Under the pieces are notes generated by a model that was given only the letters and a program-made list of their open reading frames with translations, was not told the DNA's origin and searched no databases. Made by a program: the position numbers and the translations under genes. Positions 17,626 to 64,000 of a stretch of DNA of 64,000 bases are shown here, one piece after another (position 1 is the stretch's first letter; every line of letters begins with the position of its first letter). The DNA is from Botryllus schlosseri (taxonomy: Eukaryota). Location of the stretch: the NCBI GenBank assembly GCA_051294905.1, contig CM119381.1:7874001-7938000 (forward strand). The letters run 5' to 3'.

Positions 17626-17637
17626 TTTATTGTATTT

Positions 17638-17853
17638 TCAGTGCACACGATGAGGAGACGGTTGTGGGAGTAAATATCCTAGACAGCTCGATAACAGCGT
17701 TAAATATATTTCGCGATCGGGTTTCACAGAAATTTGATATAACGAAAAAATGATTATTCCGACTAGCATAAAAATTTGTACGACAAATACACACTGATTT
17801 TTTATTTCAAGTTTGAATTCAGTAACGCGGCTTGACGTGGACTGGGAATCCAT
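17638..17853 (-). CDS. Small hydrophobic (membrane) Polinton protein
   Basis: Hydrophobic stretch FVVQIFMLVGIIIFSLYQI and LLSSCLGYLLPQP tail, between the INT and PX genes. Confidence 0.55.
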   Translation of the reverse strand: MDSQSTSSRVTEFKLEIKNQCVFVVQIFMLVGIIIFSLYQISVKPDREIYLTLLSSCLGYLLPQPSPHRVH

Positions 17854-17876
17854 ATTTACAATATAAAAAACATTAC

Positions 17877-19640: not shown

Positions 19641-19671
19641 TTTGAAACCAGAACAGCGTACACCCCGGTAT

Positions 19672-20280
19672 TTATACCGGTTGAGTGTAAATAGTCAATG
19701 TTTCGCCTGGAAATATATTGGTCATGACCCGTCTATCATCGGGGCACTCTTGTGTGAGATCGAGGCACAAATACGAATGAGGTCTCTTGACAGCGTCTCT
19801 ATAACATTCTGTTAGAAACTTGGACTTTGGGTACATCTGACGCCCCAAGACAGATATTTGGTTCTGATCTCTGGGATTTTTAAACAGGCAGACATACATA
19901 GCTGATAGACTTAGATCGCGAGCGCCTTTGCCCTGATGATGAAAGTTTTGTGTGCAGAATATTATTGACTTTCGGTTATGATGCGATATACGTATAAAAT
20001 ATTCTACCAATTTTTCTGTCTGAGTCATAAAATCGTCTACTATTATCAAAACATCCTCATTACTTGATTTAAGATCTTCCAAAATCTCCAATCCATTGTA
20101 AAATTCAACCTGGGGCATGGTCTCAAAAATACTCTGATAATTATTATAGCAGTACACGATTCTAGAAATATTAGGTTTGATCATTGAGGCTGCATTCTTG
20201 ATCAGTTTAGTGATGAAAGTAGTTTTACCACTACGAGATGGTCCGGATAGGATGAATGAGAAAGGATGCTTGAATTCCAT
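19672..20280 (-). CDS. A32/FtsK-like genome packaging ATPase
   Basis: Walker A GPSRSGKT, Walker B LIIVDDFM, SHH, TQNF, LFKNPRD. Confidence 0.95.
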   Translation of the reverse strand: MEFKHPFSFILSGPSRSGKTTFITKLIKNAASMIKPNISRIVYCYNNYQSIFETMPQVEFYNGLEILEDLKSSNEDVLIIVDDFMTQTEKLVEYFIRISHHNRKSIIFCTQNFHHQGKGARDLSLSAMYVCLFKNPRDQNQISVLGRQMYPKSKFLTECYRDAVKRPHSYLCLDLTQECPDDRRVMTNIFPGETLTIYTQPV

Positions 20281-20313
20281 GTTGCTGTTTATTCAAAACT
20301 CGAAAAACGAATG

Positions 20314-20323
20314 TATTTATATA
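20314..20323 (-). promoter_or_regulatory. TATA box upstream of the ATPase/capsid cassette
   Basis: TATATAAATA about 35-40 nt upstream of the ATPase ATG. Confidence 0.45.
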
Positions 20324-20561
20324 TAGATATATATATATCACGAGTCCGCGGACTGGGAGAATCCACTGTTGTATTCATCTTCAAGTGGGATGTATACTCC
20401 CAGCAAAGTTCGATTCAGCAGTTTGCCGCGTGTGACAAAGTCCTCATCACTGGTTTGTAATTTCGTCAAGGGTAGTTGCAAGGTCACGAAGGCTTTTTGA
20501 AGATCGTCCAGCAGTTGTTCCCAGTCTAGATATGAAATGATATTAGAGTTGTGTCGGAAAG

Positions 20562-20843
20562 TTATTTGTGAAAATGTCTAGCATGAGAACACAAAATCAT
20601 ACATGCTATCTCACCATGGGAGCATTGTTCTAAATCCTCGCGTTGTCTTGAAACGCATCGATTGTAGAATTCATTCGATATATCATGTCTCAAATACATG
20701 TCGACGACTTGAATGCGATCGCGATAACGGCACAGTGTCTTGTCATGTAGTTGATCCAGTTTGGAATGTTGTAGTATAGATTTTAAGTAGTTAGTAGCCA
20801 TCGGTAAAACAAAACACAAATACATTAAACCATCCGAGCACAA
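20562..20843 (-). CDS. Polinton hypothetical ORF (possibly disrupted)
   Basis: Co-oriented 93-aa ORF; no recognisable motif. Confidence 0.35.
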   Translation of the reverse strand: MCSDGLMYLCFVLPMATNYLKSILQHSKLDQLHDKTLCRYRDRIQVVDMYLRHDISNEFYNRCVSRQREDLEQCSHGEIACMILCSHARHFHK

Positions 20844-20919
20844 AACTGGTCTTTAACCCGGTTAGATATTACATTCGAACACCTAAAATTGATAAGCATT
20901 ATCACTAAACAGCAAAATA

Positions 20920-21462
20920 TCACAAATTTGGATCGGCACAGTTATAGTTATCGGGGAAGCCATCATTTCTCAACTCAGAAGGTTGTGTTCCAGCATCACT
21001 GCTTTCCGAGTCTGAATGAGATCGTTTTTTAGAGTTGGCGGCACGATGCTGATCGAGAAAGAGCTGCAAGGAACGCCCACGCATACAATTCTTGAAGTTG
21101 GCTCTTTTTTCCTCCCGATCGAAAAGTGGAATCCAAGTCCTGGTTTTACCCAAAACGACATAATTCGTCAGCTTGGCTCGATTGAAAATGTCTTGGTGAT
21201 CACTCGGTAGCTTGCGGTCTGGGAATCGGAGTTGTAGTAGTGCTTCCATGCATATTTCACGAATAGAGTTCCATCTTTGTTCGAGCTGATTCAGGCGCTC
21301 TCTGTAATGACGGTCGGATATCGTACCGGTGAGTGGCTCGTCCTGGGTCCCGACAATAGAGTGTTGCGTTAAATCCTGTTCCAAGCCAATGGTTTGCTTA
21401 TGCAAAGTATCCAAATCTAACTCTATTAAAACAGATTTGATGAAAGAACTTGCACTATTCAT
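20920..21462 (-). CDS. Polinton hypothetical protein downstream of PolB
   Basis: Long co-oriented ORF; ATG at 21462 directly follows a polypyrimidine-CAG acceptor-like sequence. Confidence 0.55.
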   Translation of the reverse strand: MNSASSFIKSVLIELDLDTLHKQTIGLEQDLTQHSIVGTQDEPLTGTISDRHYRERLNQLEQRWNSIREICMEALLQLRFPDRKLPSDHQDIFNRAKLTNYVVLGKTRTWIPLFDREEKRANFKNCMRGRSLQLFLDQHRAANSKKRSHSDSESSDAGTQPSELRNDGFPDNYNCADPNL

Positions 21463-21515
21463 CTGTGAAAAAACAAGAAAAAACATGATCAGAAATATAC
21501 AAAAGCAATTACACA

Positions 21516-24500
21516 TTACAGATTCAAGGGAATAGTGGTGACGCCATCGTCCAGAACATGACGCTTGGCGTAAAAATAAGACAAGGTATCGCGATGCTGT
21601 TGGTACGTGTAAATACCGTTATTATGAACTCTGAACCCTCTATTATGACCTCCCATAGGTTTTTGAGATGTCAATACTTCAAGGAATGTTTCAAAATTTA
21701 CTTGACCAGATTTCTGAAGACCTTTCGAGGCATACTTTTGTTTTGGACCATCGCAAAAGTAATTTTTTGATTGGAGACCACAAAATGCAGTACCGTCCTC
21801 GTATTCGACCTTGAACAAACCAGGTTGCCGTAGAAAGTATGCATAGACATCTTTACAGCATTGCCTCGTTCTATCGAATGAGGTTGGGTTGGACAGGAAC
21901 TCATTTCTATGTTCGTCACAAAAATAGCGTGGGAACCATTTTTCGTAATTCAGATAAAATTCAGATCTTTTTTCTGGGATTAGCATATCATCGAAAGAAG
22001 CTGAATGCCCGAGATAGATTGAGTCAGTATCGCACATAGTTATGGTCCATTGCCTGTCGTCAAAGTACGTACAGAGACAGTCGTAAAAAAACGATAGTAT
22101 TTGCTCCTTCGCGTATTGATAGACGAACCACCCGACATGAATGCAAGTATTCCATTTTATTTTTTTAGGCCTTTTGGTTACTTCGTACAAATTGAAGTTC
22201 AACTCTTCTACATTCACAAAAAACGGATCATTGACATTTCTCCGCAATTGACTTTTATCACAAAAACTGGTTCGTTTAAATTTGAGGGGGTTCATTATCA
22301 TCTTCCCATAAGCACAGTTGCCTGAGAGCTTATGAGTCAAAGCAATAATTTCCTTGTCCGGGTCCCGGTCACCAAGCCGTCTAGCGTCAGAGACAGTTTT
22401 TGCGAATCCGTCAAAACAAGTTAATTTTGTAAACTCGATTGCCTCGTATATCCGTGAAACAATTAGACCATGTTCTATATACCATTTTATCAATGTCGAT
22501 GACAAAAGAATTCTCTGGCCATAGTACGAAGCAACCAACATACGCGTTGGTTTTGATAACAGGTTGTGATCAATAGCAAATTGCTTCATGTGACCTTTCA
22601 AATCGTTACGTGAGACAAGGGTGTTTTTGAATATTGGACACAGTTCAGAAAAATATCTTTTCAAATGGGTAGGAGTGTAAATATCAACCAGTAAAGCCCC
22701 AAAGAACGTTCCATCTAACACCATTTCAATCAACTTATGAGCTGTTAGTGACTTGTTGCGAATCAATCGAGGTCGAACACTGTTTATAAATTGAGCGATT
22801 TCGGAATTTTCACGTTTAGAGATATCCCAGTGACATTCCCACATCGTGATAACACGATGCCCTAGGCTTCTGTAATATGAATGTACACGTTCTGTTCGCT
22901 CTCGACGCGCGGGGTCGTCATATGCAAAGCGGCATTTACTATGAGAATGGAAGAAACACCCCAGAAAGGATAACACAACGCCTCGACCCGATGAGTCACG
23001 GTAGAATGCATCTGCAGGGTACCCCTTGGACCCTATCCTTACTTCTGACCCGTTGAAACCATGGTGGACATGTACACCATGAACATGAGAATAGTACTGT
23101 ATCCATTCATGCGCTTTATGACCAAAGGTAGGAGCAGTCTTGACCGGTTTAAATTTAGAACACTCATTATCAAGGCTTTTCCAATGAATGGGATAGCCTG
23201 CTGGTGACGCAAGCGAAATTGGTCGGAGGTACATCGAATTGCAATCCATACCTGTTATATACTGCGTTATTTCCGCGTCTTTACCATAGAAAAGTTGTTT
23301 TATGCGAGTTTCCCCCCTTTTTTGATACCGATTAAAGATGATTGACGGGCCACCGACAAGATTTTCACGAAAAAGTAAAGCTAGATCTTTATGCTTTTCA
23401 CTGAACAAGGTGAAGCACCTTGGAATGGAATTGAATATATGCCTCGAAACAACACCCGGCAGCGAGACAGCTTCTTTAAATATATCGACATTAAATTGAG
23501 ACTTGAAAGAGTCGAATTGCTTTTCTAACCCTTCGATGAAGTAGCGAGTGTCAATTGCATTGTACCATTTTAGATAGTCACGAAGCGATGTCATATTATG
23601 ATCATTCCAAACCTTGAGACAGTTTTCATAATCAGCTTTCGATATATTACAACGTTTTATCGAGCTATAAAATGACTGATGATTCGGGAGCATAGGGTAA
23701 TCTAACAGTTCAATACTAGTCAGAAATTCATATGGAAATGACCCTTTGCACCACTACATTTGAACGCTTTCAGATATTTTTCATAAGAAAAACCAGGTGC
23801 CAAGTAATTGACGATATCGAGGAAACGAAGCCTGTTCGTAGTTAGCGAGAGAAATGTGTTACCACGCTTCAAAACATTCAAGTTTTCATCAACGAAAAAA
23901 CGCAGCAAGTATACCTTAAGACAGTTCAAGTCGTATCTGCCACCATTAAAAGATATAACTGGTATTCGCCTTAGATAGCACATGAATTCATCTTGTAAAC
24001 TTTCCAATGGTAAAGGCTTGTCCGAGGGGTCTAATACTTTCATCTCTGTGATTTTAGATTCAAACAAATCCAGATATTGACGGTATTCAACTAGCAACAG
24101 ACTGAAGGATCGACTCTGAATTGTATGAAAAATCTCTACCATCTCTTCACACAACTGAATTGGGTCACCATTAGAAACAATTACCTGTGGTTCCAAATAC
24201 CCGTCTACATTTGATGATATACTAACGGAAATTGGAATATGCTTCCAATTGTAAGTCGTTTTAGCTGAGGGATCAAAATCACATTGTTGAAACATACTCT
24301 CGATATCGAAGGCAATCCGATATTTGAAAAAACGTAAATGATTTGGGACAATTATGCCTTCAATCTCCATTCGTTCAAATACCGTCAAAGGTGGTCTATA
24401 TATCCCGCCGGGAAATATCTCGACAGGTTCAGTGATGCAGTTGTGCCTGGTCAGATGAGTTGCAAGATCGAAAAATTTGCCACAAGATTCACAATGATAG

Positions 24501-25366
24501 CTTTCGAGGTATCGATTGATCTGAGTTATCAAGCAAGCATGAGAATTTTCGAGGTGTAAATAAACAGGAGTGGCTACATAAGTACTACGTCGGACAGCAA
24601 TAGCTTTACCATCGGTCTTACGATAGATAGATATCGCTACATCAAACAATGTTTCGATGTCAGGTAACATTTCAAAAGTTACACCACCAACAACGTTCAC
24701 ACCATAAACCTGGGTATACTGTTCAGCCAATGATTTCGCATCACGATCGAGTGAGTGGCCAATGCAACGAAATACACACAGATTATCGTTATACCGATTA
24801 CGATTTTTATCATGAAGTAGTGTCATGACACATTTCGATTTTGTAAGCCACAGAGGAAGATTAACATCAGTACACCCTATCAATAACCTATCGCTAGGGA
24901 ATACGTAAAACTGTATATTTGTTAGACAAACAGGCTGTGATTTAGTATCCGGTCGGGCTTTACGCAATACATCAAATGCAGTTTCCAATCTAATGGATTC
25001 TACAAATTTTTCAAACTGTATCAATGATGAAATAGCCAATGGCATATCCAGAACACGATCGATATTTGACGATGCATGAAAATAACGATATCTTAGAGTC
25101 TCGGTGTGGTATAGAATACAGCCATATGAATAGTTGACTTTAAATCTACACGATTCAGAGAAGAATATCGCTTCGATGTCCTCGCGAACAGCTGAGAGTT
25201 GACGATTTATAATCCGAATATTGTACACCACTCGAGATCTGCCTATGTTTGCTACATACGATTTTATGGCTTGCCAGTTCTGTGTTAAAATTTCTTGACG
25301 TTCATCACCAATATCTGGTGGAAATTCATCTTCCTCACGGATACGGTGTCTTCTGCGACGGCTCAT
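21516..25366 (-). pseudogene. polB: Protein-primed family B DNA polymerase (with VSR-like nuclease insert), one frameshift near 23730
   Basis: Exo I AFDIES, Exo II FNGGRYDL, Pol DCNSMY, KLSGNCAYGK, DTDS; adding 1 nt restores GHFPYEFL; VSR-like block FLGCFFHSH...ITMWEC. Confidence 0.95.
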
Positions 25367-25435
25367 CTGTAACATTGAATTCGATTTCAATTTCACACTC
25401 TGTATTCTAATAATCAACGAGATAGTAATACTTAC

Positions 25436-25778
25436 TTATATTTTTTCTCTTGAGATCTTGAGTTCTTTTTCACCTGGTAAGCAAAGAAACAACCTTCCTC
25501 AAAATTATGTTCACCAACTTAAGGTAGTAAAAAAACAGAGAACTCACCGATGCAATAAGTTCGATGATTGGGCTTGATTCTTCTTCTCTTTCTCTGTTTC
25601 GATGAAGCAAGAAAACATCGCGTTAACACAAACTTTGGTTTATTGAATAAGATCAGTGTATACTTACACGTGTATTGGTAATATATTCACGAGCGCAGAT
25701 TCGAGATCCTCTCGCGGCGACGGCCAGGTGGAAAAGACCGAGTTGACTGCGTCGAGATTAACCCAGTGCGAGCACCAT
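25436..25778 (-). other. Putative spliced small basic ORF/leader upstream of polB (introns 25594-25667, 25474-25547, 25367-25435)
   Basis: Three GTRAGT...CAG introns of 74, 74 and 69 nt; spliced frame reads ...RKRRRIKPNHRTYCIGEKELKISREKI* with one early stop. Confidence 0.5.
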
Positions 25779-25879
25779 CTAGTGTTTACGATTTTCCGAT
25801 CGTTTGTAAGCCTATTATCTGTAATTTCATACACATCGCATTAACATTCACATTCACACAATAAATGCATTGCACTGAA

Positions 25880-26776
25880 TCACAAATCATATTTCAAGAT
25901 GGTTCTAATTGTTAAGAGCTGGTTCAGGAATTGGTCGGTTGCATCGTTCAGTTGTTTTTGAATCCGATCAATATCACTGCGTTCAATAGCCGAAGCTAGT
26001 AGCTTTTTTATTTCGAGAATGATTTTGTGCAGGGAAGGTTTCTTCTTTTCTGTAAGGGAATCAATTAAACCTAGAATCGCGCCTAGGTGTGGTCTGATCA
26101 CATCAAGAGTCTTGAGATGGTCTCGAATTTTGTTGGCGGTGTACAGACACATTTTCTCCTCTTGTCGTCTCCCTCTCGATGTCTTCGGCCGATCTTCACC
26201 CTCGCCGAGTTTCACCTGGTTGAGAACCAAAGGTTTTTGTTTCGATTTAGAGAGACATATCTTTTTACACGGAGGTGGACTGGTTTGTTGCGAGGTTGTG
26301 GGTACATCTCGCTTTCTAGAACTTGACGGTTTCTCGATTGGGATCTGTGGTTTCGGTAGGCCGGAAAATAACCTTCGAGAGGTCGTCGGTTTTTCAGACG
26401 GTACCGTGGATCGAACTCTAGATTTTGGAAAAATCTTACGAGGAGTTGCCGGTTTCTCAACTGGTAACACAGCTGAAGTTGCCGGTTCATCTGGAAGGGG
26501 TAAGCTCGAAGCCGAGGTTGTCGGGTTGTCAACCGCGACTTGGTTCGAACCACGTGATTCCAACCATGCCTGTAGTGTGATGTCACGGTGAGGCGGTTGG
26601 TTTTCGATAGGGGTCGTGGAATCACACTCAACGACCTCTGTCGTTGGAGTAACGAGGTCTTCGGGTAGGAGGGCCTCCAAAATATCCGCTTCTTCTTCAA
26701 ATTGCAACTCAAAAGAATTGGGTTCATACCCGAGGGTATTAAATCTGTTCAACTGAGCCTGGGCCATGATTAACAC
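25880..26776 (-). CDS. Polinton hypothetical protein (298 aa; acidic N-terminus, P/S/T-rich middle, NLS-like PPPCKKIC, helical C-terminus)
   Basis: Long open ORF, first gene of the leftward cassette. Confidence 0.7.
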   Translation of the reverse strand: MLIMAQAQLNRFNTLGYEPNSFELQFEEEADILEALLPEDLVTPTTEVVECDSTTPIENQPPHRDITLQAWLESRGSNQVAVDNPTTSASSLPLPDEPATSAVLPVEKPATPRKIFPKSRVRSTVPSEKPTTSRRLFSGLPKPQIPIEKPSSSRKRDVPTTSQQTSPPPCKKICLSKSKQKPLVLNQVKLGEGEDRPKTSRGRRQEEKMCLYTANKIRDHLKTLDVIRPHLGAILGLIDSLTEKKKPSLHKIILEIKKLLASAIERSDIDRIQKQLNDATDQFLNQLLTIRTILKYDL

Positions 26777-27367
26777 AAATTAAAATCGAGGTATACTGAT
26801 CAACGGATGATATTCGGTATGAGCGAGTGGGATTTACCAGTTTACTGAGAACCTATTTATTCAGAACTACTTCCTCTTTCCCGCCACGCGCACCTTCTTC
26901 CTATTTCATATCGTGTTACTCTGTTTATTATAACAACCTTTTATTCATTCTAATTTCCGATGTACGATCACTTAACCCTAGACTGCTCAGGTGGATTATC
27001 GTTACACGATCGCTCTGGTGGGGTCGATTAGACCCCATCAGTTAATATGCTTTTTGTCTTGCCAATTTCGCTATACAGCTGTCTAATAACCTCTTGCATG
27101 ACGTTATAACGATGCATCTTCCCTTTTTGAACCCTACTGTCTACCCATTGTAAAGTTCCGGCTGAGGCGTAACGCCAATACGCAAATGGCGATATGGGGT
27201 CAAACACCCCCATCAATTAATTACAATAACAAAGAAATAACAACAAGACAAGACAATACGATACAACAATGCAACAGAGTAACAACGACAACAACAAAGT
27301 AGATTCAATCCGAATCATCCGGCTCCATGCACTCTTGACATGTCACTATTTTCACAGAGTATGTTTG

Positions 27368-27619
27368 AAGAGCTTCTTGGAGGTACAGAACTCTAATATA
27401 CAATAAATAGTATATTCATATTGAAATGAACCCGAATATTTTCGGCTGACACTCGTCAGGGGTAATCGTCAGCAACTAGTAGAGAATTGGAAAGAACATT
27501 GTATATACGATTGTTGATATACAATGTTCTTTCCAATTCTCTACTAGTTGCTGACGATTACCCCTGACGAGTGTCAGCCGAAAATATTCGGGTTCATTTC
27601 AATATGAATATACTATTTA
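27368..27619. mobile_element. 252-bp insertion: perfect 103-bp hairpin, probably a Penelope-like inverted pLTR remnant
   Basis: Arms 27404-27506 and 27517-27619 with a 10-nt loop; 12-bp target duplication AGAGTATGTTTG (27356-27367, 27620-27631). Confidence 0.75.
27560..27593 (+). ncRNA. Minimal type I hammerhead ribozyme-like motif (mirror copy on minus strand at 27430-27463)
   Basis: ACCC-CTGACGA-GTGTCAGCC-GAA-AATATT-C-GGGT: conserved core, 4-bp helix I, palindromic helix III, NUH = UUC. Confidence 0.55.
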
Positions 27620-29492
27620 AGAGTATGTTTGGCAGACAAATTCCCCACATTTTCCACTTTTCTCTGTTGTTTTCCGGTCTTATGCTCTACCGCAAAGACA
27701 GCATCTGCCACGTGCAGCTTTAGAGAGCTTTGCTGGTGGAATTGTACTGTCTTCTCCCGGAAAAATTATTTTAGACGCGATTTTGTGCGGACGCGTAAGT
27801 GAGTATTTTTTTCTTTGCCTGGACACTGCATTTTTCTTTGTTAGGGTCAGTGCAATTTCCATTGCAAATCCTTTGTGTGTTTGTTTCTTCGCGCGGTTAC
27901 ATTTAGCCAGCAAAGATAATATATAGCCATTGCATGCAGACAAGTTCATCAATCCAAAGAAGATCGTCAGAGGCCAGCGCTTACTATTGCGAGAACAGGA
28001 ATAGTTTGCCACCATTCTGTCTGCCACGTCGACGCCACCTTTTGTTTGATTATAAAATGTTATTATATCTGATTTCCGAGCGTCACCAGAGCTTTCATCA
28101 ATTTTATCATCGTGATGCTGGCTGCTCACCATGGTAAGAATTTTCTTTGAGCCTTTGCCCTTTGGAAGATATGACAGCAGTGTCATATATTTTTGAAATC
28201 CAAAAATGCTGCTGTACACCTCCCTCCCCCGCAGAGAAATGAACGCAGGAGGTATCTCTCTCTTGTTCTTTAAAAGGGTGCCAACTGCTGTCAGTTTATG
28301 GTCGTGAAACAATGATGTCATCAAGGGTATACTGGTGTACCAGTTATCGAATGTGATGTTTCGGCCAGATCCTGATATATCAGACACCAGCCGTGCCACT
28401 TCTTCTTTGGCCGAGTTGTCGACTTTGTACGGCCAGTCCAGTTACGTCCCGCAATAAATTTCAAAATTGTAGGTGTAGCAAGTCTTTGCATCACACAGGG
28501 CATGTAGTTTGATGCCATATTTTGCCGGTTCGTTTCGAATAACTGTCGGAAAGAACACCGTCCTCGAAACCCCCAAAGCATTTCTTCAATTGTCACAAAT
28601 TCAGACAACACGTAATTTCTCTTGAAGGTGTTCAATTTCATATCCGATATTGTTCGAATTATCGCAAATTTGTCATTTTTTCTATCTTCGCGTGTGGTAA
28701 TGTCATCAAGCCGAAGACATCGCAAAGTGAATCGGAATCTTTCGCATGACATTGTTACCTTGAAGATATCAAAACTCATCAAGTGATAATCATGAGCTTT
28801 ATGAACCCCAGCCAGAAGAAGAAGACCAATGACAGCTTCCATCTCCACCGAATTACTTGGCCCTACCCTGCACTTCTCTTTGTAGTTTTGGGCTTCTTCA
28901 GGTGTCTTCTTGTTTGTAAATTCAACAAGTAAATCTATTACTTGTGGTGTAAAGAAGAGCTTCCAATAATCAACGCAGTTATCAGCTTCTAGTGCGGGCC
29001 CAGTGAGACCCGGTGAAAACTTTATCATATTCGCTGCACTTCGACTGGCAGTCGGAGCAGTCTTTCTCCAAAACGTGGTACCGTCTTTTCCTAACCACCC
29101 ATCACTGCCAGCTTCACCTTCTTCAGGATTTTCTTGATCATCTCGTAGACTGCAAGTGACAGAACCAATGCCAAGCAGCAACTAAAAGTCGAAATCCATC
29201 CGATCACAATGAGGAGATAATTACTTAGTCTGCCCACTATACTTGCAAAATCAGACCCATGCGCAATCAATAGCTCATTGCGGCGAGGTATTAGCGATAA
29301 TCAGCTAATGATTTATTCCGTATGATAATGTATAACACCATTGAGGATTACATGTCTGGAAAGAACAATCCGATCGCACAAAAAAATATGGCTCACATTT
29401 TTGTTCGCCTGGGGTCTTTTTGACCCCAACCTGAGCAGTCTAGGGTTAATTACCGGAATTTTTACAGTTTTTATTGTCAGTAACTACACAAT

Positions 29493-29825
29493 ATGGACTC
29501 AACTCATACCCGAGTGATTATAGAAAATTATCTACTTCGCCATCACCAATTACCTGTCCCTGATTCGGGGGAAACAGAACAGTTGGTTCACGATATCATT
29601 GATTTATACATATCAGATCAAATTGTTGAGAGCATCGAAAAATGTGATTTCACATCATTAACCAACGCGATTCTGGGATACGGTGTGGACTGGAATGGTG
29701 TTATGTGCATTGTAGCGATCGCAGCTATGAAAAGTGATGTTCATACTATCTCATTGTACACAGATGCATCATCGAAATTCTTGAATACACACTTTATCTC
29801 ACTGACAAATGATTGGGTATGCTGA
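29493..29825 (+). CDS. Putative Bcl-2-fold (Bak-like) protein encoded by the Polinton
   Basis: BH4-like TRVIIENYLLRHHQ, BH1-like FTSLTNAILGYGVDWNGVMCIV, BH2-like FLNTHFISLTNDWV; no TM tail. Confidence 0.55.
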   Translation: MDSTHTRVIIENYLLRHHQLPVPDSGETEQLVHDIIDLYISDQIVESIEKCDFTSLTNAILGYGVDWNGVMCIVAIAAMKSDVHTISLYTDASSKFLNTHFISLTNDWVC

Positions 29826-29952
29826 ATTTCAGACTACACAATCACAAAACTATCACTATGATTTTATTTACAGAATTCCTGCAAGGATTATTTCAAACCA
29901 AGTCTGTTCAGGCGATTCATCAAACTTCTAAACCGAGTAACTACGCGTTTAT

Positions 29953-30004
29953 GGTCACGTGACTAGGTCTATAAAATACGAGTAACCCCACGGTAATGAT
30001 CATT
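29953..30004 (+). promoter_or_regulatory. Pol II promoter of the SSB gene: E-box GGTCACGTGAC, TATAAAA, Inr TCATT
   Basis: E-box 29953-29963, TATA 29970-29976, Inr about 32 nt after TATA, ATG at 30022. Confidence 0.55.
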
Positions 30005-30021
30005 ATCTGGACATCATAGCA

Positions 30022-30618
30022 ATGGATAGTATACAAGGATTGACCATTGGAAAATCATCGGACCTGCGACTTGCAGTAAAGTTTGTTTCCTCCCCGAAAA
30101 AGGGGCTCGTTAGTAGTTACCTGAAAGGTGTATTTATAGACAACGGGAACAATACTATACCCTTCACTTGTTTCAACCAAGAACTGTTCAAACCCATCGA
30201 AAAAGCTTTTAGGAAACGCAAGCGACTACTCATCAAAACAGCCTGGGCTCGACTCGATAAGTTTACGGGGGAACCTATTTTGCTACTCGGTCGCAGTTCG
30301 TCTGTTACTATTCATGGCAGATCAAAACACACCCCAGACGAATACGCCGTTGTAAGCTGTAACAATATAGGCAGCGAAAAATATATTTCAATCAATGCGA
30401 TATGTACCGACCATGAGGAAAAATCCATCCCCGTCAATGGCGAAGACCTCAAACTACATAGTTTTACGTTAAGCGATGACACCGGAACTGTCAAACTCGA
30501 TCAATGGACCTCGCCTGGTTTAAAAAAAGGGAGAAAGTATGCACTAACGCGCGTCAAAAATCAGGATGGAAGATTAAAGATTGACCAGTTAACTCGAATT
30601 CTAGAGTTACAAGAATGA
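30022..30618 (+). CDS. RPA-like single-stranded DNA-binding protein (two OB folds)
   Basis: VFIDNGNNTIPFTCFNQ (cf. RPA70 DBD-A D-E-S-G-E-I-x-x-T-x-F-N) and FTLSDDTGTVKLDQW (cf. DETGxVKLTLW). Confidence 0.7.
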   Translation: MDSIQGLTIGKSSDLRLAVKFVSSPKKGLVSSYLKGVFIDNGNNTIPFTCFNQELFKPIEKAFRKRKRLLIKTAWARLDKFTGEPILLLGRSSSVTIHGRSKHTPDEYAVVSCNNIGSEKYISINAICTDHEEKSIPVNGEDLKLHSFTLSDDTGTVKLDQWTSPGLKKGRKYALTRVKNQDGRLKIDQLTRILELQE

Positions 30619-30676
30619 TATATATGTGTGTCTACTGTTTCACAATACACAATGGTTGATGCATATTTTCGTGTCA

Positions 30677-31165
30677 TCTGTGATTCGTGATATACTTAAC
30701 ACAGTGGGTCAGTTTTGCGCTGAGCGATTGTATTTGGTATTGTGTACGCTCACGATTGCTTCTAGATCAACCTGTTCCACGGGAAACAATTCACGATACA
30801 TCCACTATAGCGGACAGGATACCATAGTCATTTGCCCCGCGGAATGTAGGTCACTACACATTAAAACACCTGTTTTACGCTCACGGATTGCTTCTAGACC
30901 AACCTGTTCGACGGGAAGCAATTCCCGTAGTGATTCAGTCGACAGGATACCATAGTCATTTGTCTCCGCAGAATATGTAGGTCACTTCGCATTAAAACAC
31001 CTGTTTTCAAAATCGATCGCGGGAAGCGCACAATGACGCTTTTTCGAAGCTCCATAGGCCGATTTTCGACCACTAGCTAGCTCAAAATGCACCGTTTCTG
31101 ACTTCCGAAATGCAACATTCTTGTTTCCGGTATTTTACGAATCACGGGACCACAATATAACTACT
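30677..31165 (-). repeat. Polinton right TIR, with 181 bp absent from the left TIR and a ~131-bp tandem duplication
   Basis: Reverse complement of the left TIR plus extra 30727-30907; 30747-30876 repeats as 30878-31007. Confidence 0.9.
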
Positions 31166-42951: not shown

Positions 42952-43158
42952 ACTGCTCTATAAATTCCCTTTTCTCGCCTGGATATTCTTTCGTATCACT
43001 GAAATGCTGTTAATTTTTTTTTGTCCATCCAATACGTACTCCATCGTGAACTGGTTTTCATATATTACGCAATTCTTGGTCGTGGTGCTAAAGACCAACA
43101 GGTGATAAGCGGCAAATCTTTCTTTTTAATAAACAACAACAACAACCTAAGCTCGCTG

Positions 43159-44954
43159 CGGAATTGTATGATATCACTAGTGCTAAATGCACGCGTCACA
43201 GTGTTGAACATATTCGCCACTGTAATAGTGGGGTATATCATCAAAATCGTCATAAGGCCAAGTTAAATGCAGTGGCATGCCATGTAATGTTGATTGAAAC
43301 TGAGACGTTTCGATACGTGTTTGGGTCCACTGAGGCTACTTGTCAGTCTCGCGTGGGATCGCCTATTTCTGCTCGGGATTGCGCCGCGTATGTGAAAAAT
43401 GGGGACGGTAAATTTGGTCCGTTGATCACCATTAGCCCTGTGTTGTTGCGTACGAACAACACGGCTGAATACAGTTATGTGTACTTGCGGACTTGCCAAA
43501 CTATCGTGACAAATGTTTTCGTGTTAAAAACGGGCATGATGTATGATCATGAAAAGAACGAATTGTCTTCGCCTTCATCGTTTACTGACGGATGTCGTGT
43601 AATGCAAGGTTTATGTGAAACGGAAACGTATACGTTTGTGTGGGATGCGAGTGTGAAACTCGTAGGCCCGAACTTGGAAATTGAGACTAACACCTCTATG
43701 GTAATGTATTCAGACGAGGATAAGAAAGTATCACGTATCGAACTCCCATTTTTAGGCATGTCTTTTCACGAGTGGTATGAATGAGGTAAAATAAATTCGG
43801 ATTGTTTTGTGGATCATGACTTGATTTGTACGTATAGTGGTTTAGTATTAAAAAATGTTGAATGCGCAGACTACGAAATTAGTGATTCATTTGCTATGAA
43901 CATGACCCATCTTAACATAGGGAGCCTTTTATCGGCGATATTGCAGAATATTGAGGATAGGAGTGTAGCCGCTAACAAGGGTACACAAAGCACGTTAAAT
44001 GCAATTCATTGCCAGATGGAAAACATTGTGGTGTCAAATATGAGAATTTTGGCGAATTCTCACCCTAGTGCTGTGTTGTCCACGTTGATGTATCGCCCCG
44101 TACGGTCGATCAAAGTTGGCGATGCGTTCGTGGTAATGCATTGTACGGACGTAAACGCGACTTTGTTGGACAGTTTGGTGCATGAAGGTGTTGTGTCAGC
44201 AAGACCTCTTGTAATGTTTACGGACTACGAAAGCAAAAATAGAATTGGTCAAATATATTACGGTGATACAATCCAGAAGGGAGTCCGTGATGTCGAAACC
44301 ACAAATCCTAAACGTAATACCCATTTGGTAAAGTTGTTCAAAATTAATGGCATTTTCTTCAAATTCTACAACAATTCATTAGTGTCGGTGAATGTAACTG
44401 TGCGCCGTCTTATCCCAAACATTCATGATATTGAAATTCCGTATAAGGAAGTTGATTATTTGGCCGTCATGACTGAGTTGTTTGGAGGTGAGGATGTTGA
44501 GGCCGGTGCTGATGTGGAATCGGTAATGTTTAAAACCACATCTGACTTCGTTAGGCACGCTCAAGCAGTACGTCGACTCGCGAGAGACGTTACTGGTTCG
44601 GTAGTGGTTAGAGAAGGTGAGGGGGTAGTTTCGGTGCTGGGTAAAATCGGCGGATGGTTCAAGAATTCCTTTCTGGGTTTGCTCGGAATGATTACTGGTC
44701 CCGCTGGTCGGGTTATATCGGTAATGGTAGCGGCCTTCGTAGTGATTGTTGCTTGTGGGGTATGTGGGAAGTTTACACGGTACGGGATGAGAGGCTCTAA
44801 AAAGTTGCGGATGTCGCGCGCTAATAGTGAAAATGAGAATGATCGCATCAAAATTAGAAAATTACTGCAAAAATATAGAAATCGAAGGGAAGCGGAAATT
44901 GATAGAGATGGTAATTCTAGTGATAAAGTCGAAGAGGTGAACGACAGTGAATAG
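43159..44954 (+). pseudogene. env: env of element A: class III fusogen-like glycoprotein (herpesvirus gB-like), in-frame stop at 43782-43784
   Basis: HCQ...SHPSAVLSTLMYRPVRSIKVGDAFVVMHCTDV and SARPLVMF align with gB WC...NPS..RPV.AR.LGDV..V..C..V and CYSRPLVSF; MPR-like GKIGGWFKNSFLG, TM helix, basic tail, N-glycosylation sequons. Confidence 0.78.
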
Positions 44955-45617: not shown

Positions 45618-46122
45618 CTTAACAAAATATATTGGTATAACGGCATTTTAATAATAGTCAATAAGGAGTTGGTAAACCTTACGTAATTCCCTGAACTGAG
45701 ACCTGATAACTGATAAGACCTTTGTGAGTCGTATATTTTGTTGTGTGAACGTAGATAACAAAGTATGAAATCGTACGATGTTTTGGTGCATGAAACTCTC
45801 TCGTGGCTATTCGAGATATGCGTAGGTAATACCACGGAGAGACATTGATTCACATTCATCCATTATTATTTCGCTGATTCGGAAGTCGATTGCATTGCCG
45901 TACGTCATTCAATAAAGTTACAAGTCGTGGAGATAGAAACAATATATTCGTCAGTGTGATCCATCGAATACGTGTGCAATAGACAGGCTTCGTGGTACAT
46001 CAGCCAACAAGACCGTACGGCGTGGTTACGCCGGTCGTCGAACGCCAGGGAACACGCAGCGAATAGTAACCGCTGCCTTCTGGCGTTAATTATACAACTA
46101 CAAACATTCGCTCTGCGTTAGA
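45618..46122 (+). repeat. 3' LTR of element A
   Basis: Direct repeat of 7969-8491. Confidence 0.93.
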
Positions 46123-49900: not shown

Positions 49901-51379
49901 ATTCCGCAGTCACTTCGCTCGCGAGTAGGGCTGTTCAAAAATAACCTTTTTTCCTCATTCTTGCGGGTTACTTGATTAAATCGTTAGGTTGCCTTAAAAA
50001 TTGACGCACACCAAATTTGAATTCATTCCAACCAATATTCGCGGATTTCGTAGAGTTTGAAAATTTTGAATTTGCCTAAAAATGCAAAAAAATTTTTTTT
50101 TCCAATTTTCCTTCCAACCTTATGAAATTGTTGCTCTGTCTTCAAAAACGATGCAAAACAAATTTGACTCGATTCCAAGCTGCAGAAGCCGAGTTATTCA
50201 AGTTTTTTGATGATAATTCTGGGATGATCCCCCAATCAAGGATAATCCCAGAATTATCTAAGAAAAACTGAAATAACTCCACTTCTACGGCTTCGAATTG
50301 AGTCAAATTTGTTTTGCATCGTTTTTGAAGACAGCGCAACAATTTCATGGGGTTGGCAGAAAAATTTGAAAAAAATTTTTTTTTTGCATTTCTAGACAAA
50401 TTCAAAATTTTCAAACTCTACGAAATCCGCGTATATTGGTTGGAATGAATTCAAATTTGGTGTGCGTTATTTTTTAAGGCAATCTAACGATTTAATCAAG
50501 TAACCCGCAAGATTCAGAAAAAAAGGTTATTTTTGAACAGCCCTACTCGCGAGTCTTATCATTGTTGCACGAAGGACGTTGGGGTATTGCGAAAATGAAG
50601 TAGATGGCTCGACGTTACATCGCATGGCCTTCCATTATTCGCGACATTGAAAATCTCGTTAAGAGTTGCGACGCTTGCCGTAAGGTAATGAAAGCGAAAG
50701 CGCCTGATCGTCAGTATCGCGAATGGCCTAAAACTTCTGAAAGCTTTGAAGGAATTCACTTGGATTTCGCAGGTCCAATAAACAATAAAATGTTTCTTGT
50801 CATCGTCGATGCGCATTCGAGCGCATTCGAAATATCCTTTCGTTAAAGTAATGAATGTCGGTTCTACCACAACCTTGTGTGTGGTCAACGCTTTGAGGGA
50901 AGTCTTCTCTATCGAAGGCTTGCCCATGACAATTGTCACGGATGACGGGCCGCAATTCACATCGAATGAATTCGATACGTTTTGCTCTAATTTGGCAATC
51001 AGCCATATCGTATCACCGTCTTTTCAGCATGCCTCGAACGAGGAAGCGGAGCGTTTCGTCCATACTCTGAAAGATGGATTGATAAAAAATTGCGACTGGG
51101 GAAAAATCTCAACTTTGCGCTCCAAACACTTCTCGCTACTTACCGATGTGCACCGCACCCGGGCATAGACAGGAAAACGCCTGCCGAGAGTTTACACGGT
51201 CGACAGCCACGCAATTTGTTAAGTTTGTGCTCGCCCTTCGATAAATCGAAACCCGTTGCGCCTGGACAATCAGTCACTCATTTCGAGATTGGTTCCTCGG
51301 TTTACGCTCGCAGTTACCGGAGCAGTCCAAAGTGGGTTGCTGGCGTGGTGACAGAAATACTGGGGCGTATTGTGTTTAT
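46916..51379 (+). pseudogene. pol: Element C gag-pol, heavily disrupted (RT YxDD region deleted)
   Basis: Q-rich coiled N-terminus, FDS..EKW..YL.RF, QWDTGA, GDFKALN, IDLADAYFQ, YLGH, TEASQFGIG, TDHKPL, HGNADGLS, HEG.WGIAKMK, IHLDFAGP, TDDGPQFTS. Confidence 0.88.
49926..50545. mobile_element. Foldback-type hAT MITE (620 bp) inserted in the element C integrase
   Basis: TAGGGCTGTTCAAAA...TTTTGAACAGCCCTA, nearly entire length palindromic; 8-bp TSD CTCGCGAG; removal restores LRSRVLSLLHEG. Confidence 0.93.
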
Positions 51380-51720
51380 CAGGCGTGGGCAAACTTTTGA
51401 GCTTGCGGGCCGCATTCAACATCTGAATCCATTCGCGGGCTGCACTATATAAAATTGGTATTATAAACCAAATATTGATATTTTATTATCTAGTGAGGAC
51501 ATGGAGATAATATATGTGCTGTTTTAAAGCCAGCCAAACACTGCTTTGATGGTATCGTACACGCGTAAGAAACATAGTGACGAGATTTCATAGGCTGGCT
51601 AGCTATAGAGATGAAAGTCGGTTGTCCCGATTCTTAGAACAGTATTGAAATTTAAATCTGTGAGCAGTGATCTGTCCACTTCTGGTTCAGTTTCAGGACA
51701 CACAATGCTGACAGCATCGT
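51380..51720 (+). mobile_element. hAT (Charlie/Buster-like) left end, truncated
   Basis: CAGGCGTGGGCAAACTTT terminus; homologous to 63771-64000; no right TIR seen. Confidence 0.7.
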
Positions 51721-54700: not shown

Positions 54701-54885
54701 CCTAAACTACAGGAGTCGTTTGAGTAATTGCCTAGACACTCGCATCTGCCTATTCAAGTGCCTTCTATTGGGGACGGTGGAGTTCCCTGGTCTATAGGAC
54801 CCTTTCCGTATTTTTATTGGACCCAACATCTTGAATTGATTTTGTGATTTCTTGGTTGTGTAATTGGATTTTCCACCTAATTTAA

Positions 54886-55378
54886 AGGGGCACTGCGCTC
54901 TAAAAATGATGTGGTCTCAAATTGAAGGTAAAAACAAACAAGAATTTTTGGCCGTAGCCATTTCCTTCAGAACGCCACCGTAATGAAGCTGCAATTTATT
55001 GAAATTTCTACAAGACCAGCGTCCGCGGCTGCTTAACCCGTTACATTGCACGATGTCGTCATCGTCGCACTTGCTCGACACGATAAGGCAGTCACGCAGA
55101 GAACGAAACTCAGACACATTTCCTTCATAACATTAGCTGACAACTATCTAAAATTCGTTCTCTGCGAGACTGCCTAATCTCGTTTAGCCTAAAGTGCGAC
55201 GGTGAAGATATCGTGCCATGTAACGGGTTAAGCAGCCGCGGCAGCTGGTCTTGTAGAAAGCTCAATAAATTGCAGCTCCATTACGGTGGCGTTCTGAAGG
55301 AAATGGCTGCGGCCAGAAATATTTGTTTGTTTTTACCTTCAATTTGAGACCACATCATTTTTAGAGCGCAGTGCCCCT
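54886..55378. mobile_element. Kolobok-type MITE (493 bp)
   Basis: TTAA-AGGGGCACTGCGC...GCGCAGTGCCCCT-TTAA with ~200-bp inverted arms. Confidence 0.9.
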
Positions 55379-55382
55379 TTAA

Positions 55383-59090: not shown

Positions 59091-60837
59091 TTATTGATAA
59101 CAGAATTGGGGCTATACAGATTTTACCCAAATTAGATAATAATAATAATATTATTACTATGATAATTTATAGAGCACCCAATGTAACAATATAGTTTTAC
59201 TACACTAGAGCGCTGTACATAAAATGCAATAAAATATAAAACTAAACTATACGTATAAAAGATGCAGTGTATAGTTGTAGGGCGGAATGAATACGACTCT
59301 AGTTCCAACGCTAGATTAGACCCTTAATTAGATTAGAATTAGAATTTGAGCTTCATAGTTTTTTGTCAAATTAGGTTAGAATTAGATATACTGAATTCAC
59401 AAAAACTTGCAAATTGAATGAAATTGTGAATGTAAAATGAATGCAGAATAAAACAGCTAGTTCATATGAAATCACAGTGCCATCACATAACCATCACTGA
59501 AGCACGGCTCTTGATTGGTTAATCAGCTATGGTTGAATGATCACAACCGCATCGTCTTGCTGATTATGTGCTTCTTATCGTTCAAGAAGTTTGCTAACGT
59601 CAATGATTCTGTAAGCGCATTGTAGATTCTGGATTTAAAAATAAAATGTGACACCTGACTTATGGGATTAGCTGGGTTATAGACGCACCAATCAAATTAC
59701 GGCATGTCATCCTAATCGCCACGCCCATATTCATACCCTAAGGGTACATTTTGTAAAAGTGATTATATTCCGAGACTTGATAATAACTTGCTTTCGAGAG
59801 AAAAACATCATTCAGATTATACATAAATTTCGAAAATTACGATGTCCATGCAAGGCTATGTTTTTATTTTATGTGTATTTAAGACTATAGTCGTAGCAGA
59901 AATGTGAGCATTACTTAGCGCAAATTGCAAATAACGTCACTATTCGGTTCTAGACCGACTTTTCGTGTAGTATACTACGATATATACGACAGCTGACACT
60001 CTCCGCAGATATTCTATTATAAGGTTTTAGGACTATATATCTTCGCAGATAATATGAGCAATACACTATCAACGTTGAACTATGCGCGGTTTTGCAGCGA
60101 CATATTGAAATTCTACATATATTTCATTTCAGATTTTACATAAATTAAAAAAAACTATGATGTCTAAGCAAGACTATATTCGCCAGATATTCTATTATTA
60201 TGATTATTTAGGACTTAATATTTTCCAGGATAATATGAGCTTTCATGCAACACTCGTCCACGTTGAATTAGGCGCGGTTTTTATGATGACAGTCACGACA
60301 TTTTAGGACTTATATCATATGCTCGCAGTACAACTAAATGGGGCTTCATTCTAATACCGGCATAATTTTTACATGTCGAATTTAATGGTAATTAAATCAG
60401 CACTAAATCGCCAACGTACTAGACGCAGGCGCGCGATTCTCGGCGTTATAATTGAACAAACACTCTCGCAGCAGGTACGCGATCCCCAAGGTTATACTGA
60501 TAGGGACTAATTAGTCACATGAGCGCGAGTCTAATGAATATTCCGACATATACAAGCTAGTTTAAAAGTAAAACTAATCGAAAATTCACGAAGTTCCGAT
60601 AAACTATATCTCAATTTTCCTAAATTATTCATCCACAAGAGTTGATGTGTAGTTAAGTATATCATTTTCAGATGGCAATTATTACCTCGCTTCCGTAAAC
60701 CAACAAAACACAACTGAGGTCCTATTCCGTTATTCTATGCAACAATATGTAGGCGACCAGCCTGATTTGAACATTCAAATCTGAACACTCCAGGTAAACT
60801 TATCGCCCACCACCGATAGGCATACTCATTTGATGCC

Positions 60838-63770
60838 TTTAAGCGGATGCGCTTAGTAACCTAGTAAAACACATTACAGAATTCACGCGTAAGTCGGTAT
60901 TGCTCTGTGATGATTTTGAGGTTGTTTCATACCGATTTCACTCAATTTCGCGAAGTAGGTTGATAACTACTACTTTTAGTAAGTTAGTTACGTAGTACGA
61001 ATTATTATTTTTTAATTCAAATATAGCGTATCGAGTACTTTTTTTAGTGCCTTAGAGACGTTTACACTGTGGATTTCGAAAGCTTCACTTGATTTTTGTT
61101 TTTAAATAAGCTAGAAGTAGCCATTTCCGAGTAAGTAAAACGCAGGTATTCTACGACCTTTTCTGCTTAATACTGTAACTATCATTCAGTTGAAGCAGAC
61201 TAATGTAATAAACACTTGAGAGTATTTGTTATATATAGCTAAAAACCTAATTGAGTACTCTGAAGAAGTATAACTAGCACAGTTTTTGGTATTTGTATGA
61301 CATCGAAGTTTACGTACTCCACGCTTACCTTATGTCAATAGTTTAAAACGTATACTTGAGTACTACAAAATGTACCAGTACTTTACCTTTACACTACGTT
61401 TTTCGTAAAATGAATACCAATTTTAATAAAATATAAAAGTGCGCGAAAAGTAACATTTATCCCGGAACGCAGCAAGAAAAATCGTATGGATTTGTATAGT
61501 ATACAGAAAACTACACTATCCCGATGCACTAAAGACTTCCTAAAATATTACACAAGACAGAACATGCGAGTATCCATTATCTTATTAATGCTATTGCAAT
61601 AGATGTCAGTCCGATTCCGACAAACACGACTCCCTTTCAAACTTTATTGTAGTCGAAAGCGGTATTATCAAAGAATCCCACAAAGCTGTCCTGCAACAAA
61701 AATAGAAGCCCTAATGATCATACAGAGTACAGTTGTAGTGTCGTAGAATATAAATTGGGAACCTAATTGGAAAGTAGAGCTGAGTTTTATCAGCGAGAGA
61801 TGATATGGGCTCTGGAAAGCAGATACACCATATATCTCATGCTAAAAGATAATTAGTAAAACCTAAGCAAAACATCTAAATCCCCAAGCCATCCTCCATT
61901 TTGCACGGTCCACTTTCGCCTTCTGCTTGCAATGTAATTCCTGACTGTCTGTATGATAGTTTCTATATGCTTCCCATGATTCTCATCCTCCGTCTTGCGA
62001 GCAAGAATGCTACAAAGCACAAAAGGGAGACAATCCTACCCCAATTTTCATGGGTATCTTTTGAAATTTCATTAGCTATCATCATTATTATATTTTTCAC
62101 CGACTCCAACATCATTATAACGGATACGTTTGAAGACTGCATTCACGACAGTTGGATGTCGCTGGAACATTTCACCCCCACTATTTACCTTAACGCATGA
62201 GTTCGTACATAATAAAATTCCTAGTCAAGGAGTATCCTTCGGATAAAATTTCATCGTTTTTCCCGGTGACCGAAGGTGATACTCGTGTTAATTCCATGGT
62301 TTGAGGAGAATAGCGAGTCAGAGCTCACTGCGTTTTCGCGGCTCAGAATGACTTATCGCGATGAAAAATAGCATCAATAAATCGAGTCCCGCCATGCAAT
62401 ATTTGAGTTTTACAAATTACCCTTCGAAATGAGCCCGCATGTTGGATATTATCGAAAACCTCCGTTCAAAATGATACGACTTTACCTAGAGCGAACAAGT
62501 ATTTAGGGTATTAGGAAAGTTCTTGTATAATCTACATTTTAGAAAACTCATGTAAAGCCCACGAAACCCATTGTGTAAAAGTCTCTAATGTGATGGAAAA
62601 AAATTATTCGATACGCTATATTTATATCTAAAAATATTATTCCCCGTGAAACGTACTGGGTGTGGGGTTTGGACCCAGTTTCATCTATATCCTACAATGA
62701 CTTTTCACACTCCAGTGTGAATTATCGCAATGAAAAATAACAAAATTACATTGAGAAGTTGACTTTTGAATATAGAAAATGCGCGAGCTCAACTAACTTT
62801 TTACGGGGTTCGAAATCGCAACTTCTATACATTAACACAAAGTATTTGCGAGACATCGCAGCGCCGCTCATATTGCATGATCTATTTATTTCACAGGTAT
62901 GGAATTACTCCGACATTTATTAGAGTATACTTTTACAGCGTTTGCCTACGAAGAGTACTAGACTAATAAGCGGATCGCGATTGAACATAGATGAAAGATT
63001 GACTTGATTCAAGTTTAATAAACGTTCCGCGATGTAAAATTTGTATATACTATACAAAATCCAGAGCGTAAAGTCTTTAATGCATCGGAATAGTGTAGTT
63101 TTCTATCTACTATACAAATTCATACTACTTTTCTTGCTGCGATCCGGGATAAAATGTAATTTTTCGCATACCATTATTTTTTTAAAATTAGTACTCATTT
63201 ATAAAAAAACGTCAGGTAAAGGTAAAGTACTTGTACATTTCTTAGTACTCAAGTATAAGTTTTAAACTATTAACAGAAGGTAAGCGCCAAGTACGTAAAT
63301 TTTGATGTCATACAAATTCCACAAACTGTGCTAGTTCTGCTTCTTCAGAGTACTCAATTAGAATTTTAGCTATATGCAGCAAATGCTCTCAAGTGTTATG
63401 GTATTGGCCTGCTTTCAATCTATATTAGTTACAGTATTAAGCAAGAATGGACCTAGAACACTAACGTTTTACTTACTCGGAAATGGCTACTTCTCACTCA
63501 AAAAAAACATAACAAGTATAGCTCACAAAATTCATAGCGTAAACGTCTCTAATGCCCTAAAAAAGTTCACGATACGCTATATTCGAATCTAAAATAATAT
63601 TTCGTACTCCGTTACTAGTTTAGTAGTAGTTATCTACCTACTTTACGAAATTGAGTGAACTCTCACAAATCGGTATGAAACAACATCAAAATCATCTCAG
63701 AGCATCACCGACTTTTGCGTGAAGTCTGTATTGCGTTTTACTACGTTACTATAAGGGCATCTGCTTAAAG
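60838..63770. mobile_element. Long inverted-repeat (foldback-like) element, ~700-bp arms, ~1.5-kb spacer
   Basis: 60838-61540 is the reverse complement of 63068-63770 at roughly 80-85% identity by eye; the outer right end is cut by the hAT at 63771. Confidence 0.75.
61857..62297 (-). pseudogene. Intronless Bcl-2 family pseudogene
   Basis: BH4-like SLTRNFIMYELMR, BH3-like GGEMFQRHP, BH1 NWGRIVSLLCF (62029-62046 core), BH2 WTVQNGGWLG (61889-61912) in correct order, across ~3 frameshifts and stops. Confidence 0.8.
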
Positions 63771-64000
63771 CAGGCGTGGGCAAACTTTGAGCTCGCGGTC
63801 GCATTCAACATCTGAATCCACTCGCGGGCCACGCTATATAAAATTAGGATTATAAACCAAAACACAATATTAGTATTTGATTATATAGCGAATGCATGGC
63901 GATAATTCATATGCTTATTTAAAACCAACCAAACATAGCTTTCAAGAAATCGTACAGCACGCGTCAGAAAGAGTGGCAAGACTTTGTAGGCTGGTTGACC
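63771..64000 (+). mobile_element. hAT (Charlie/Buster-like) left end running off the right edge
   Basis: CAGGCGTGGGCAAACTTT terminus; second copy of the 51380 element. Confidence 0.75.

Follow-up and report, generated by a model that had tools for sequence, protein, structure and literature searches.

A Bcl-2-family gene that retains its intron, probable cargo of a decayed high-copy inverted-repeat element in Botryllus schlosseri

A Bcl-2-family gene lies between long inverted repeats

The window, meaning the whole stretch of 64,000 nucleotides of Botryllus schlosseri DNA that we analysed, contains near its right edge a Bcl-2-family gene in the spacer of a long inverted repeat. The features of this locus are listed below, with the basis of an assignment in brackets where one applies.

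60839..60842, no strand: candidate target-site duplication TTAA, just outside the left arm (sequence)
60843..61538, plus strand: left arm of the inverted repeat, 696 bp, without a notable ORF
61577..61690, minus strand: Bcl-2 exon 2, comprising the end of the BH2 helix region and the C-terminal membrane anchor (alignment to last exons)
61643..61648, minus strand: AATAAA, exon 2 coding sequence (codon map)
61691..61888, minus strand: intron, 198 nt, phase 0, after BH2 NGGW; acceptor intact, donor lost in the window copy
61889..62297, minus strand: Bcl-2 exon 1, comprising a BH4-like region, a BH3 remnant, BH1 and BH2 (Pfam; alignment to P0067 and P0008)
62542..62658, minus strand: degraded third copy of arm positions 146-267, in the 5' flank of the gene
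62670..62957, no strand: segment absent from high-depth relatives (joint 62669 to 62958)
63071..63764, minus strand: right arm of the inverted repeat, 694 bp, pairing with the left arm
63765..63768, no strand: candidate target-site duplication TTAA, just outside the right arm (sequence)
63771..64000, plus strand: start of a separate very high-copy repeat, 78% identical to 51380-51598, with the highest depth of the stretch

When 60837-61538 is aligned with 63770-63071, 582 of 688 aligned bases are identical, with 26 gap columns (blastn of arm against arm: 81.2% over 714 columns, E 5.7e-180). This bears out the inverted repeat of about 700 bp that had been described in an earlier sequence-only reading of this DNA. 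The third copy of the arm came from an nhmmer search with a profile built on both arms (E 1e-13). Neither arm has terminal repeats of its own; the two are co-terminal at both ends, and TTAA is present at the outer ends only. TTAA flanks both outer ends and is the only sequence common to the two flanks of the arm-gene-arm unit; it is self-complementary, and its right occurrence adjoins another element. The inverted symmetry continues through the left TTAA and two bases farther outward, and then ends. Inside the TTAA, the termini read GC...GC, and if TTAA is indeed the target-site duplication, the pre-insertion site would be a perfect 8-bp palindrome before the repeat at 63771. At the left boundary, the depth of matching DNA in run X1 steps from 84 to 2505, and three of the four bins immediately left of 60859 are low (143, 231 and 84, versus 2505).

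The differences between the arms consist of 54 transitions and 52 transversions, a flatter ratio than is usual for simple decay, which suggests that the arms may have differed from the outset. The repeat at 63771, which we take to have a hAT-like terminus, either took the element into its own target duplication or truncated the right arm. Directly left of the element, 59800-60290 holds degenerate repeats with a period of about 180-190 bp that are repeated elsewhere in the genome.

The gene has two exons and keeps the BH2 intron

Two minus-strand frames in the spacer match Pfam PF00452, one with an E of 5.6e-6 (under the curated cut-off) and the other with an E of 3.5e-8 (over it). The features that mark membership of the Bcl-2 family are present, namely a PF00452 domain with BH1 NWGR (found as NWGRIV) and BH2 W..GGW (found as NGGW), and the gene has a C-terminal membrane anchor downstream of the BH2 intron. 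The family, the strand and an AATAAA at 61648-61643 had all been recognized correctly in the sequence-only reading. Its list of four BH motifs holds in part: BH1 and BH2 are there, the BH3 core has lost nine codons, and BH4 goes by resemblance only. The frame from 62297, which contains the BH4-like region, has no Pfam match at E 0.1, and its likeness was seen by eye and to P0008 only.

The gene had also been taken to be intronless. We scored 240 possible continuations past NGGW against the spliced last exons of P0024 (limpet), P0068 (tubeworm) and P0070 (oyster). The best of these starts 198 nt past NGGW, at 61690, immediately after a pyrimidine tract and CAG, and has a summed score of 141, versus −34 for the direct continuation without an intron. 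The exon that begins there aligns without internal gaps to all three last exons, contains a hydrophobic anchor (best 17-residue hydropathy 2.46) and reaches its natural stop at 61579-61577, 38 bp off the left arm. The gene therefore runs from 62297 to 61577, and not over 61857-62297 as proposed at first. An alternative acceptor at 61841 was rejected, falling outside the 8 best of the 240 continuations.

In the RNA run X7, 14 reads diverge from the window sequence precisely at 61889, the boundary between exon 1 and the intron. Among the 65 proteins compared (P0002 left out), a GW motif follows BH1 in 56 and is missing in 9. The residue after GW is valine in 52 of the 56, three more have valine at the second GGW, and the remaining one is a spliced model. 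Because valine codons start with GT, we infer that these gene calls run on into the intron donor. P0006 and P0067, the closest relatives, read through into sequence homologous to the start of the window's intron. The window frame stays open for 11 codons past NGGW with no canonical donor, and it is the loss of this donor in the window copy that caused the intron to be overlooked. With exon 2 placed 198 nt downstream, AATAAA falls within the coding region, ahead of the membrane anchor, and so is no poly(A) signal.

These results bear on whether the gene could be a processed (retro) pseudogene of a host Bcl-2 gene. The existence of AATAAA and the open frame past NGGW would suit such an origin, but the gene has a 198-nt intron with an intact acceptor and a homologous last exon, and the homologous intron start in P0006 and P0067 points the same way. 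The marks of a processed pseudogene are absent, with the intron kept, AATAAA inside exon 2 and no tail after the stop: we looked for an A tract or a poly(A) remnant in the 38 bp between the stop and the left arm and saw none. The hundreds-fold depth described below is a further point against it. We regard this explanation as refuted by the retained intron and give it almost no weight. The idea that the element had captured a retrocopy falls with it; since the gene keeps its ancestral BH2 intron, it would have been copied as DNA, not from mRNA.

The window copy is dead

The copy in the window is dead: it carries three frameshifts and one stop, and it has lost both its BH3 core and its splice donor. 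Aligned to P0008 and P0067, exon 1 is shifted in frame near 62201, 62089 and 62025, and nine codons of the BH3 core, which is present in P0067, P0008 and P0003, are deleted near 62179. Exon 1 is identical to P0067 at 79 of 108 aligned residues and to P0008 at 53 of 70. Contigs with zero differences from the window span 61690-62318 in both DNA runs, X1 and X3, so the breaks in exon 1 and the loss of the donor are real and not assembly errors. Exon 2 has a single in-frame stop, at 61639-61637, outside the span of the listed zero-difference contigs. At 61637, all aligned contig depth and all 10 RNA reads carry a different letter, and this stop is therefore either private to the window copy or unconfirmed by the runs.

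Arms and gene are abundant and joined in other copies

We compared 4 of the 24 listed runs with the window at 80% identity, X1 and X3 as DNA contigs and X7 and X11 as RNA. X1 and X3 represent a single sample, from which the assembly itself may derive. As the measure of single-copy depth we took zero-difference contigs: six of them in X1, with a mean of 11.2, and in X3 five out of six, with a mean of 45.1 (leaving out record 9 with a depth of 53.2). Because summed contig depth does not equal copy number, we read only as an order of hundreds the median summed depths of about 222x (X1) and 500x (X3) single-copy in 8 arm bins, and of 152x (X1) and 491x (X3) in 5 gene bins. DNA labelled with the same organism name holds abundant diverged relatives of both the arms and the gene, and the gene family appears to have multiplied hundreds of times in the Botryllus schlosseri genome.

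Joints within contigs show how these parts are connected elsewhere. The joint 62669-62958, which skips the segment absent from high-depth relatives, has a depth of 1159 in X1 (104x) and 8000 in X3 (178x); that segment is in part a decayed duplicate of the 5' flank of the gene, 62695-62755 resembling 62326-62386 (43 of 61 identical). The joint 62457-63138, found in X3 only (depth 2362, about 52x), ties the gene-side spacer to the arm in other copies. The left flank is itself repeated (median summed depth in 8 bins 45x single-copy in X1 and 86x in X3), and a joint at 60461-60890 in X3 (depth 438, about 10 copy-equivalents) ties it to the arm in other copies; the unit may therefore be larger.

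Conceivably, a common 700-bp repeat inserted twice, independently, and by chance came to surround one copy of a separately amplified Bcl-2 gene. Identity between the arms is just 85%, nested repeats crowd the genome, and among the contigs listed, none spans arm, gene and arm at another locus. However, independent insertions would leave unexplained why the arms are co-terminal with TTAA at the outer ends only and without terminal repeats of their own, and why the stop codon lies only 38 bp off the left arm. In addition, high-depth joints tie the spacer to the arm, and gene depth and arm depth are of the same order. We consider this explanation improbable. The case that the sequence-only reading had set against its own, a single-copy processed pseudogene between independent insertions, fails because gene and arms are both repeated, are joined elsewhere, and the intron is kept. 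Its proposal of mobile packaging of the Pack or foldback type is supported by the same repetition and joining.

We mapped 10 variant places in the BH1-BH2 region. Five fall in codons where P0067 and P0003 both differ from the window, three where only P0003 differs, and two at third positions that leave the residue unchanged. The match of 8 of the 10 to codon differences of P0067 and P0003 indicates that these two proteins represent subfamilies of the same family. P0003 has an open first exon and a full Pfam domain (1-100 of 100, E 5.8e-23), and the first exon of P0067 is open as well; P0006 and P0008 lie on one 4016-bp contig and constitute a second broken copy.

RNA reads matching the window run in both directions, and relatives are present in RNA at low depth. 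With about 6 and 13 in 100 of the runs sampled, 0 of 180 reads in X7 and 0 of 46 in X11 had at least 99% identity to the window, and none of the 15 joints listed in RNA (there are 24 more) was a spliced joint.

The cargo resembles pro-survival Bcl-2 proteins

When P0003 was used as the query, 63 of 83 candidates passed E 0.001. P0004-P0008 are 47-83% identical to it and the remainder 29-40%. A quick tree of 66 rows, from which P0001, P0002 and P0008 were left out, unites P0003, P0006, P0067, P0004, P0005 and P0007 in a single long-branch group with an SH-aLRT of 99, separate from the named genes of molluscs and annelids. The Logan contigs that carry P0004 and P0007 are 10 kb long, as might be expected of low-copy host genes.

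Like the Mcl-1/A1-like genes of Patella (P0024), Ridgeia (P0068) and Crassostrea (P0070), the mobile copies have the order BH3-BH1-BH2 with an intron after GGW, and they share with lophotrochozoan Mcl-1/A1-like genes a short last exon bearing a membrane anchor. Unlike these named genes, to which they are about 30-36% identical, the mobile copies belong to the separate long-branch group together with the unnamed P0004, P0005 and P0007. Relatives that have names are Bcl-2/A1-like genes from a limpet, a tubeworm and an oyster, the oyster one being named A1-like, and the top solved-structure matches of P0003 are Bcl2-like 10 and Mcl-1. Judging from these matches and the A1-like name, it is likely that intact copies have a pro-survival role.

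Homolog searches with two window fragments returned no relative (2 and 7 candidates). P0002, a repetitive protein of 4799 aa and one of 2 matches in the representative search, was discarded as spurious. With P0003 or alignment A2 as the query, there was no relative among 3 and 58 pattern matches in viral contigs, nor among 188 and 89 in JGI metagenomes; 164 pattern matches in GTDB genomes included no relative either.

Probably a captured gene in a non-autonomous element

The locus is probably a decayed copy of a high-copy, non-autonomous inverted-repeat element of the Pack-TIR or foldback type, whose cargo is a whole two-exon Bcl-2-family gene. The ancestral element would have acquired a genomic animal Bcl-2 gene, including its intron and promoter side, by gap repair or template switching and not through mRNA. 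Arms and gene may then have been amplified as a single unit by a helper acting in trans, with the amplified unit dividing into P0067-like and P0003-like subfamilies. Intact copies are predicted to encode a membrane-anchored pro-survival protein like Mcl-1, A1 or Bcl2l10, which would bind BH3 partners and could thereby aid the survival of carrier cells. The window copy presumably ceased moving long ago and decayed afterwards.

As a helper, our tentative first choice, held at somewhat less than even odds, is a TTAA-specific DDE transposase acting on element ends at 60843 and 63764. TTAA on both sides, the palindromic empty site that it implies and the depth step at the left boundary speak for a cut-and-paste element of this kind; the self-complementarity of TTAA, the end of the right arm at another element's terminus, the joint of left flank and arm and the GC...GC termini speak against it. 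We found neither a transposase nor the parent gene of the cargo. Among TTAA-specific transposons, piggyBac has termini of CCC/CCY, and Sola3 combines TTAA with TIRs of several hundred bases and GAG termini. The element agrees with piggyBac in TTAA but ends in GC...GC, not in CCC/CCY; its TTAA and long TIRs fit Sola3, whereas the GAG termini do not. End features of Sola3 are not given in the accessible text of four reports (PMC5199201, PMC4455052, PMC10294476, PMC12637253). Kolobok elements, according to the accessible text of PMC9587614, have a TTAA duplication and termini of 5'-RR and YY-3'. TTAA at both ends is alike, but GC...GC does not fit RR...YY.

Alternatively, the element could lie inside a longer palindrome, a Maverick/Polinton satellite, whose right arm was cut by the repeat at 63771 and continues beyond the window. 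The left TTAA would then merely mirror the right one, and a virus-like helper would copy the palindrome. In keeping with this, the right arm ends exactly at the terminus of another element, 230 bp before the window edge, the joint 60461-60890 ties flank to arm at about 10 copy-equivalents in X3, and each arm contains a AGTAGTAGTTAT-type motif that resembles the end of the Polinton in the window, yet faces outwards. On the other hand, DNA similarity between the element and this Polinton does not exceed that of shuffled controls, tblastx gives no match at E<0.5, and depth is low in three of the four X1 bins just left of 60859. The sequence-only reading had offered derivation from a large virus-like element as its other inference; for this possible origin, neither the Polinton in the window nor the viral contigs searched gave a match. 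The AG...CT ends with a 5-6-bp duplication are absent at 60843 and 63764; the true ends could be outside the window. We consider the satellite origin rather unlikely, though well ahead of independent insertions.

For the Pack-TIR or foldback-type element, the closest known system is Ssk-FB4 of Drosophila melanogaster. In the accessible text of its report, this Pack-TIR has arms of about 700 bp, four copies and 9-10-bp target duplications of the MULE type, and its cargo, taken up as DNA, is a host gene that is nearly whole and includes the introns and 5' region (PMC8277862). The same text proposes gap repair or template switching for capture by animal Pack-TIRs, and describes animal DNA transposons carrying host genes as known mostly in single or few copies (PMC8277862). 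The element described here is likewise non-autonomous, with inverted arms of about 700 bp and a near-whole gene with introns captured as DNA, and its terminal inverted repeats surround a captured genomic gene, as is characteristic of Pack-TIRs. It differs from Ssk-FB4, as far as the latter is described there, in that depth suggests hundreds of copies in several subfamilies rather than four, and in carrying an apoptosis regulator. Its candidate target duplication is TTAA, and the 9-10-bp duplication that marks MULE/Foldback FB4 elements is absent.

The Burro LTR retrotransposons of planarians also bear cell-death regulators. In the accessible text, they carry BIR domains and a BCL2-like motif, and the IAP region of Burro1 is said to protect stem cells (PMC6431247, PMC13465017). 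Burro, so described, is a 30-kb autonomous retroelement with these domains fused in a polyprotein, whereas the present element is an inverted-repeat DNA unit of 2.9 kb whose gene stands alone and contains an intron. In the literature that we searched, which comprised few subscription journals and no supplements, we came across no inverted-repeat DNA transposon reported to carry a Bcl-2 gene.

A family that carries a complete apoptosis regulator in hundreds of copies would be extreme among DNA transposons with host genes, and would parallel, as a DNA element, the Burro retroelements of planarians. It makes testable the standing idea that selfish elements bring survival genes that protect the cells in which they move; with the many bulk and single-cell RNA runs that exist for Botryllus schlosseri, intact copies can be examined for expression in particular cell types. 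Mobile copies will also inflate any count of Bcl-2 genes in this genome. It is tempting to speculate that a small family of inverted-repeat DNA transposons has carried a functional, spliced pro-survival Bcl-2 gene to hundreds of genomic sites and keeps it under selection, although we think this doubtful. The selected cargo would then block host cell death, for example so that germ or stem cells survive transposition damage.

Other mobile elements in the window

A Polinton/adintovirus-type element occupies 13313-31165; its inverted ends measure 258 bp and are 99.6% identical, and its target duplication is 6 bp long. It is inserted in a Gypsy pol region, and its polB- and capsid-like ORFs are split (labels assigned by eye from ORF translations). 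It contains a remnant of a piggyBac-like transposase at 27680-29181 (Pfam DDE_Tnp_1_7).

The spacer gene had been counted as the second mobile Bcl-2 gene of the window, the first being an ORF at the Polinton end, 29487-29822. For this ORF, we found no Pfam family, no usable Atlas match and no convincing PDB sequence match. An hhalign comparison gave a probability of 0.4%, and blastp to P0067 an E of 4.9; by blastp, the ORF is not detectably related to the spacer Bcl-2 gene. A single-sequence model (pLDDT 50.6) had no Foldseek match at E 0.001 and a best Z of 5.9, so there is no clear fold match, and a second mobile Bcl-2 gene is not shown. In the wider region 29487-29970, the helical ORF has a tryptophan at the corresponding BH2 position, directly after which comes a candidate GT-AG intron of 57 nt and then a short exon resembling Bcl-2 last exons. 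From these features, it is possible that 29487-29970 is a very divergent spliced Bcl-2 gene. At the right end of the Polinton, 29986-30618 encodes a 210-aa ORF with no clear Pfam family that looks OB-fold-like by eye.

A broken fusion-glycoprotein-like gene lies at 43092-44954 (Pfam Glycoprotein_B, E 4.3e-5; Monjiviricetes_fusion, E 0.002). The 92% match between 45619-46120 and 7970-8489 suggests an env-bearing LTR element split by nested insertions. At 4334-7157, an element with 259-bp inverted ends (92.7%) contains a C2H2 zinc-finger ORF and a 205-aa ORF without a family. Three short palindromic MITE-like elements are found at 49918-50553, 54882-55382 and 27404-27619; the one at 54882-55382 has TTAA and AGG ends, consistent with the Kolobok rule.
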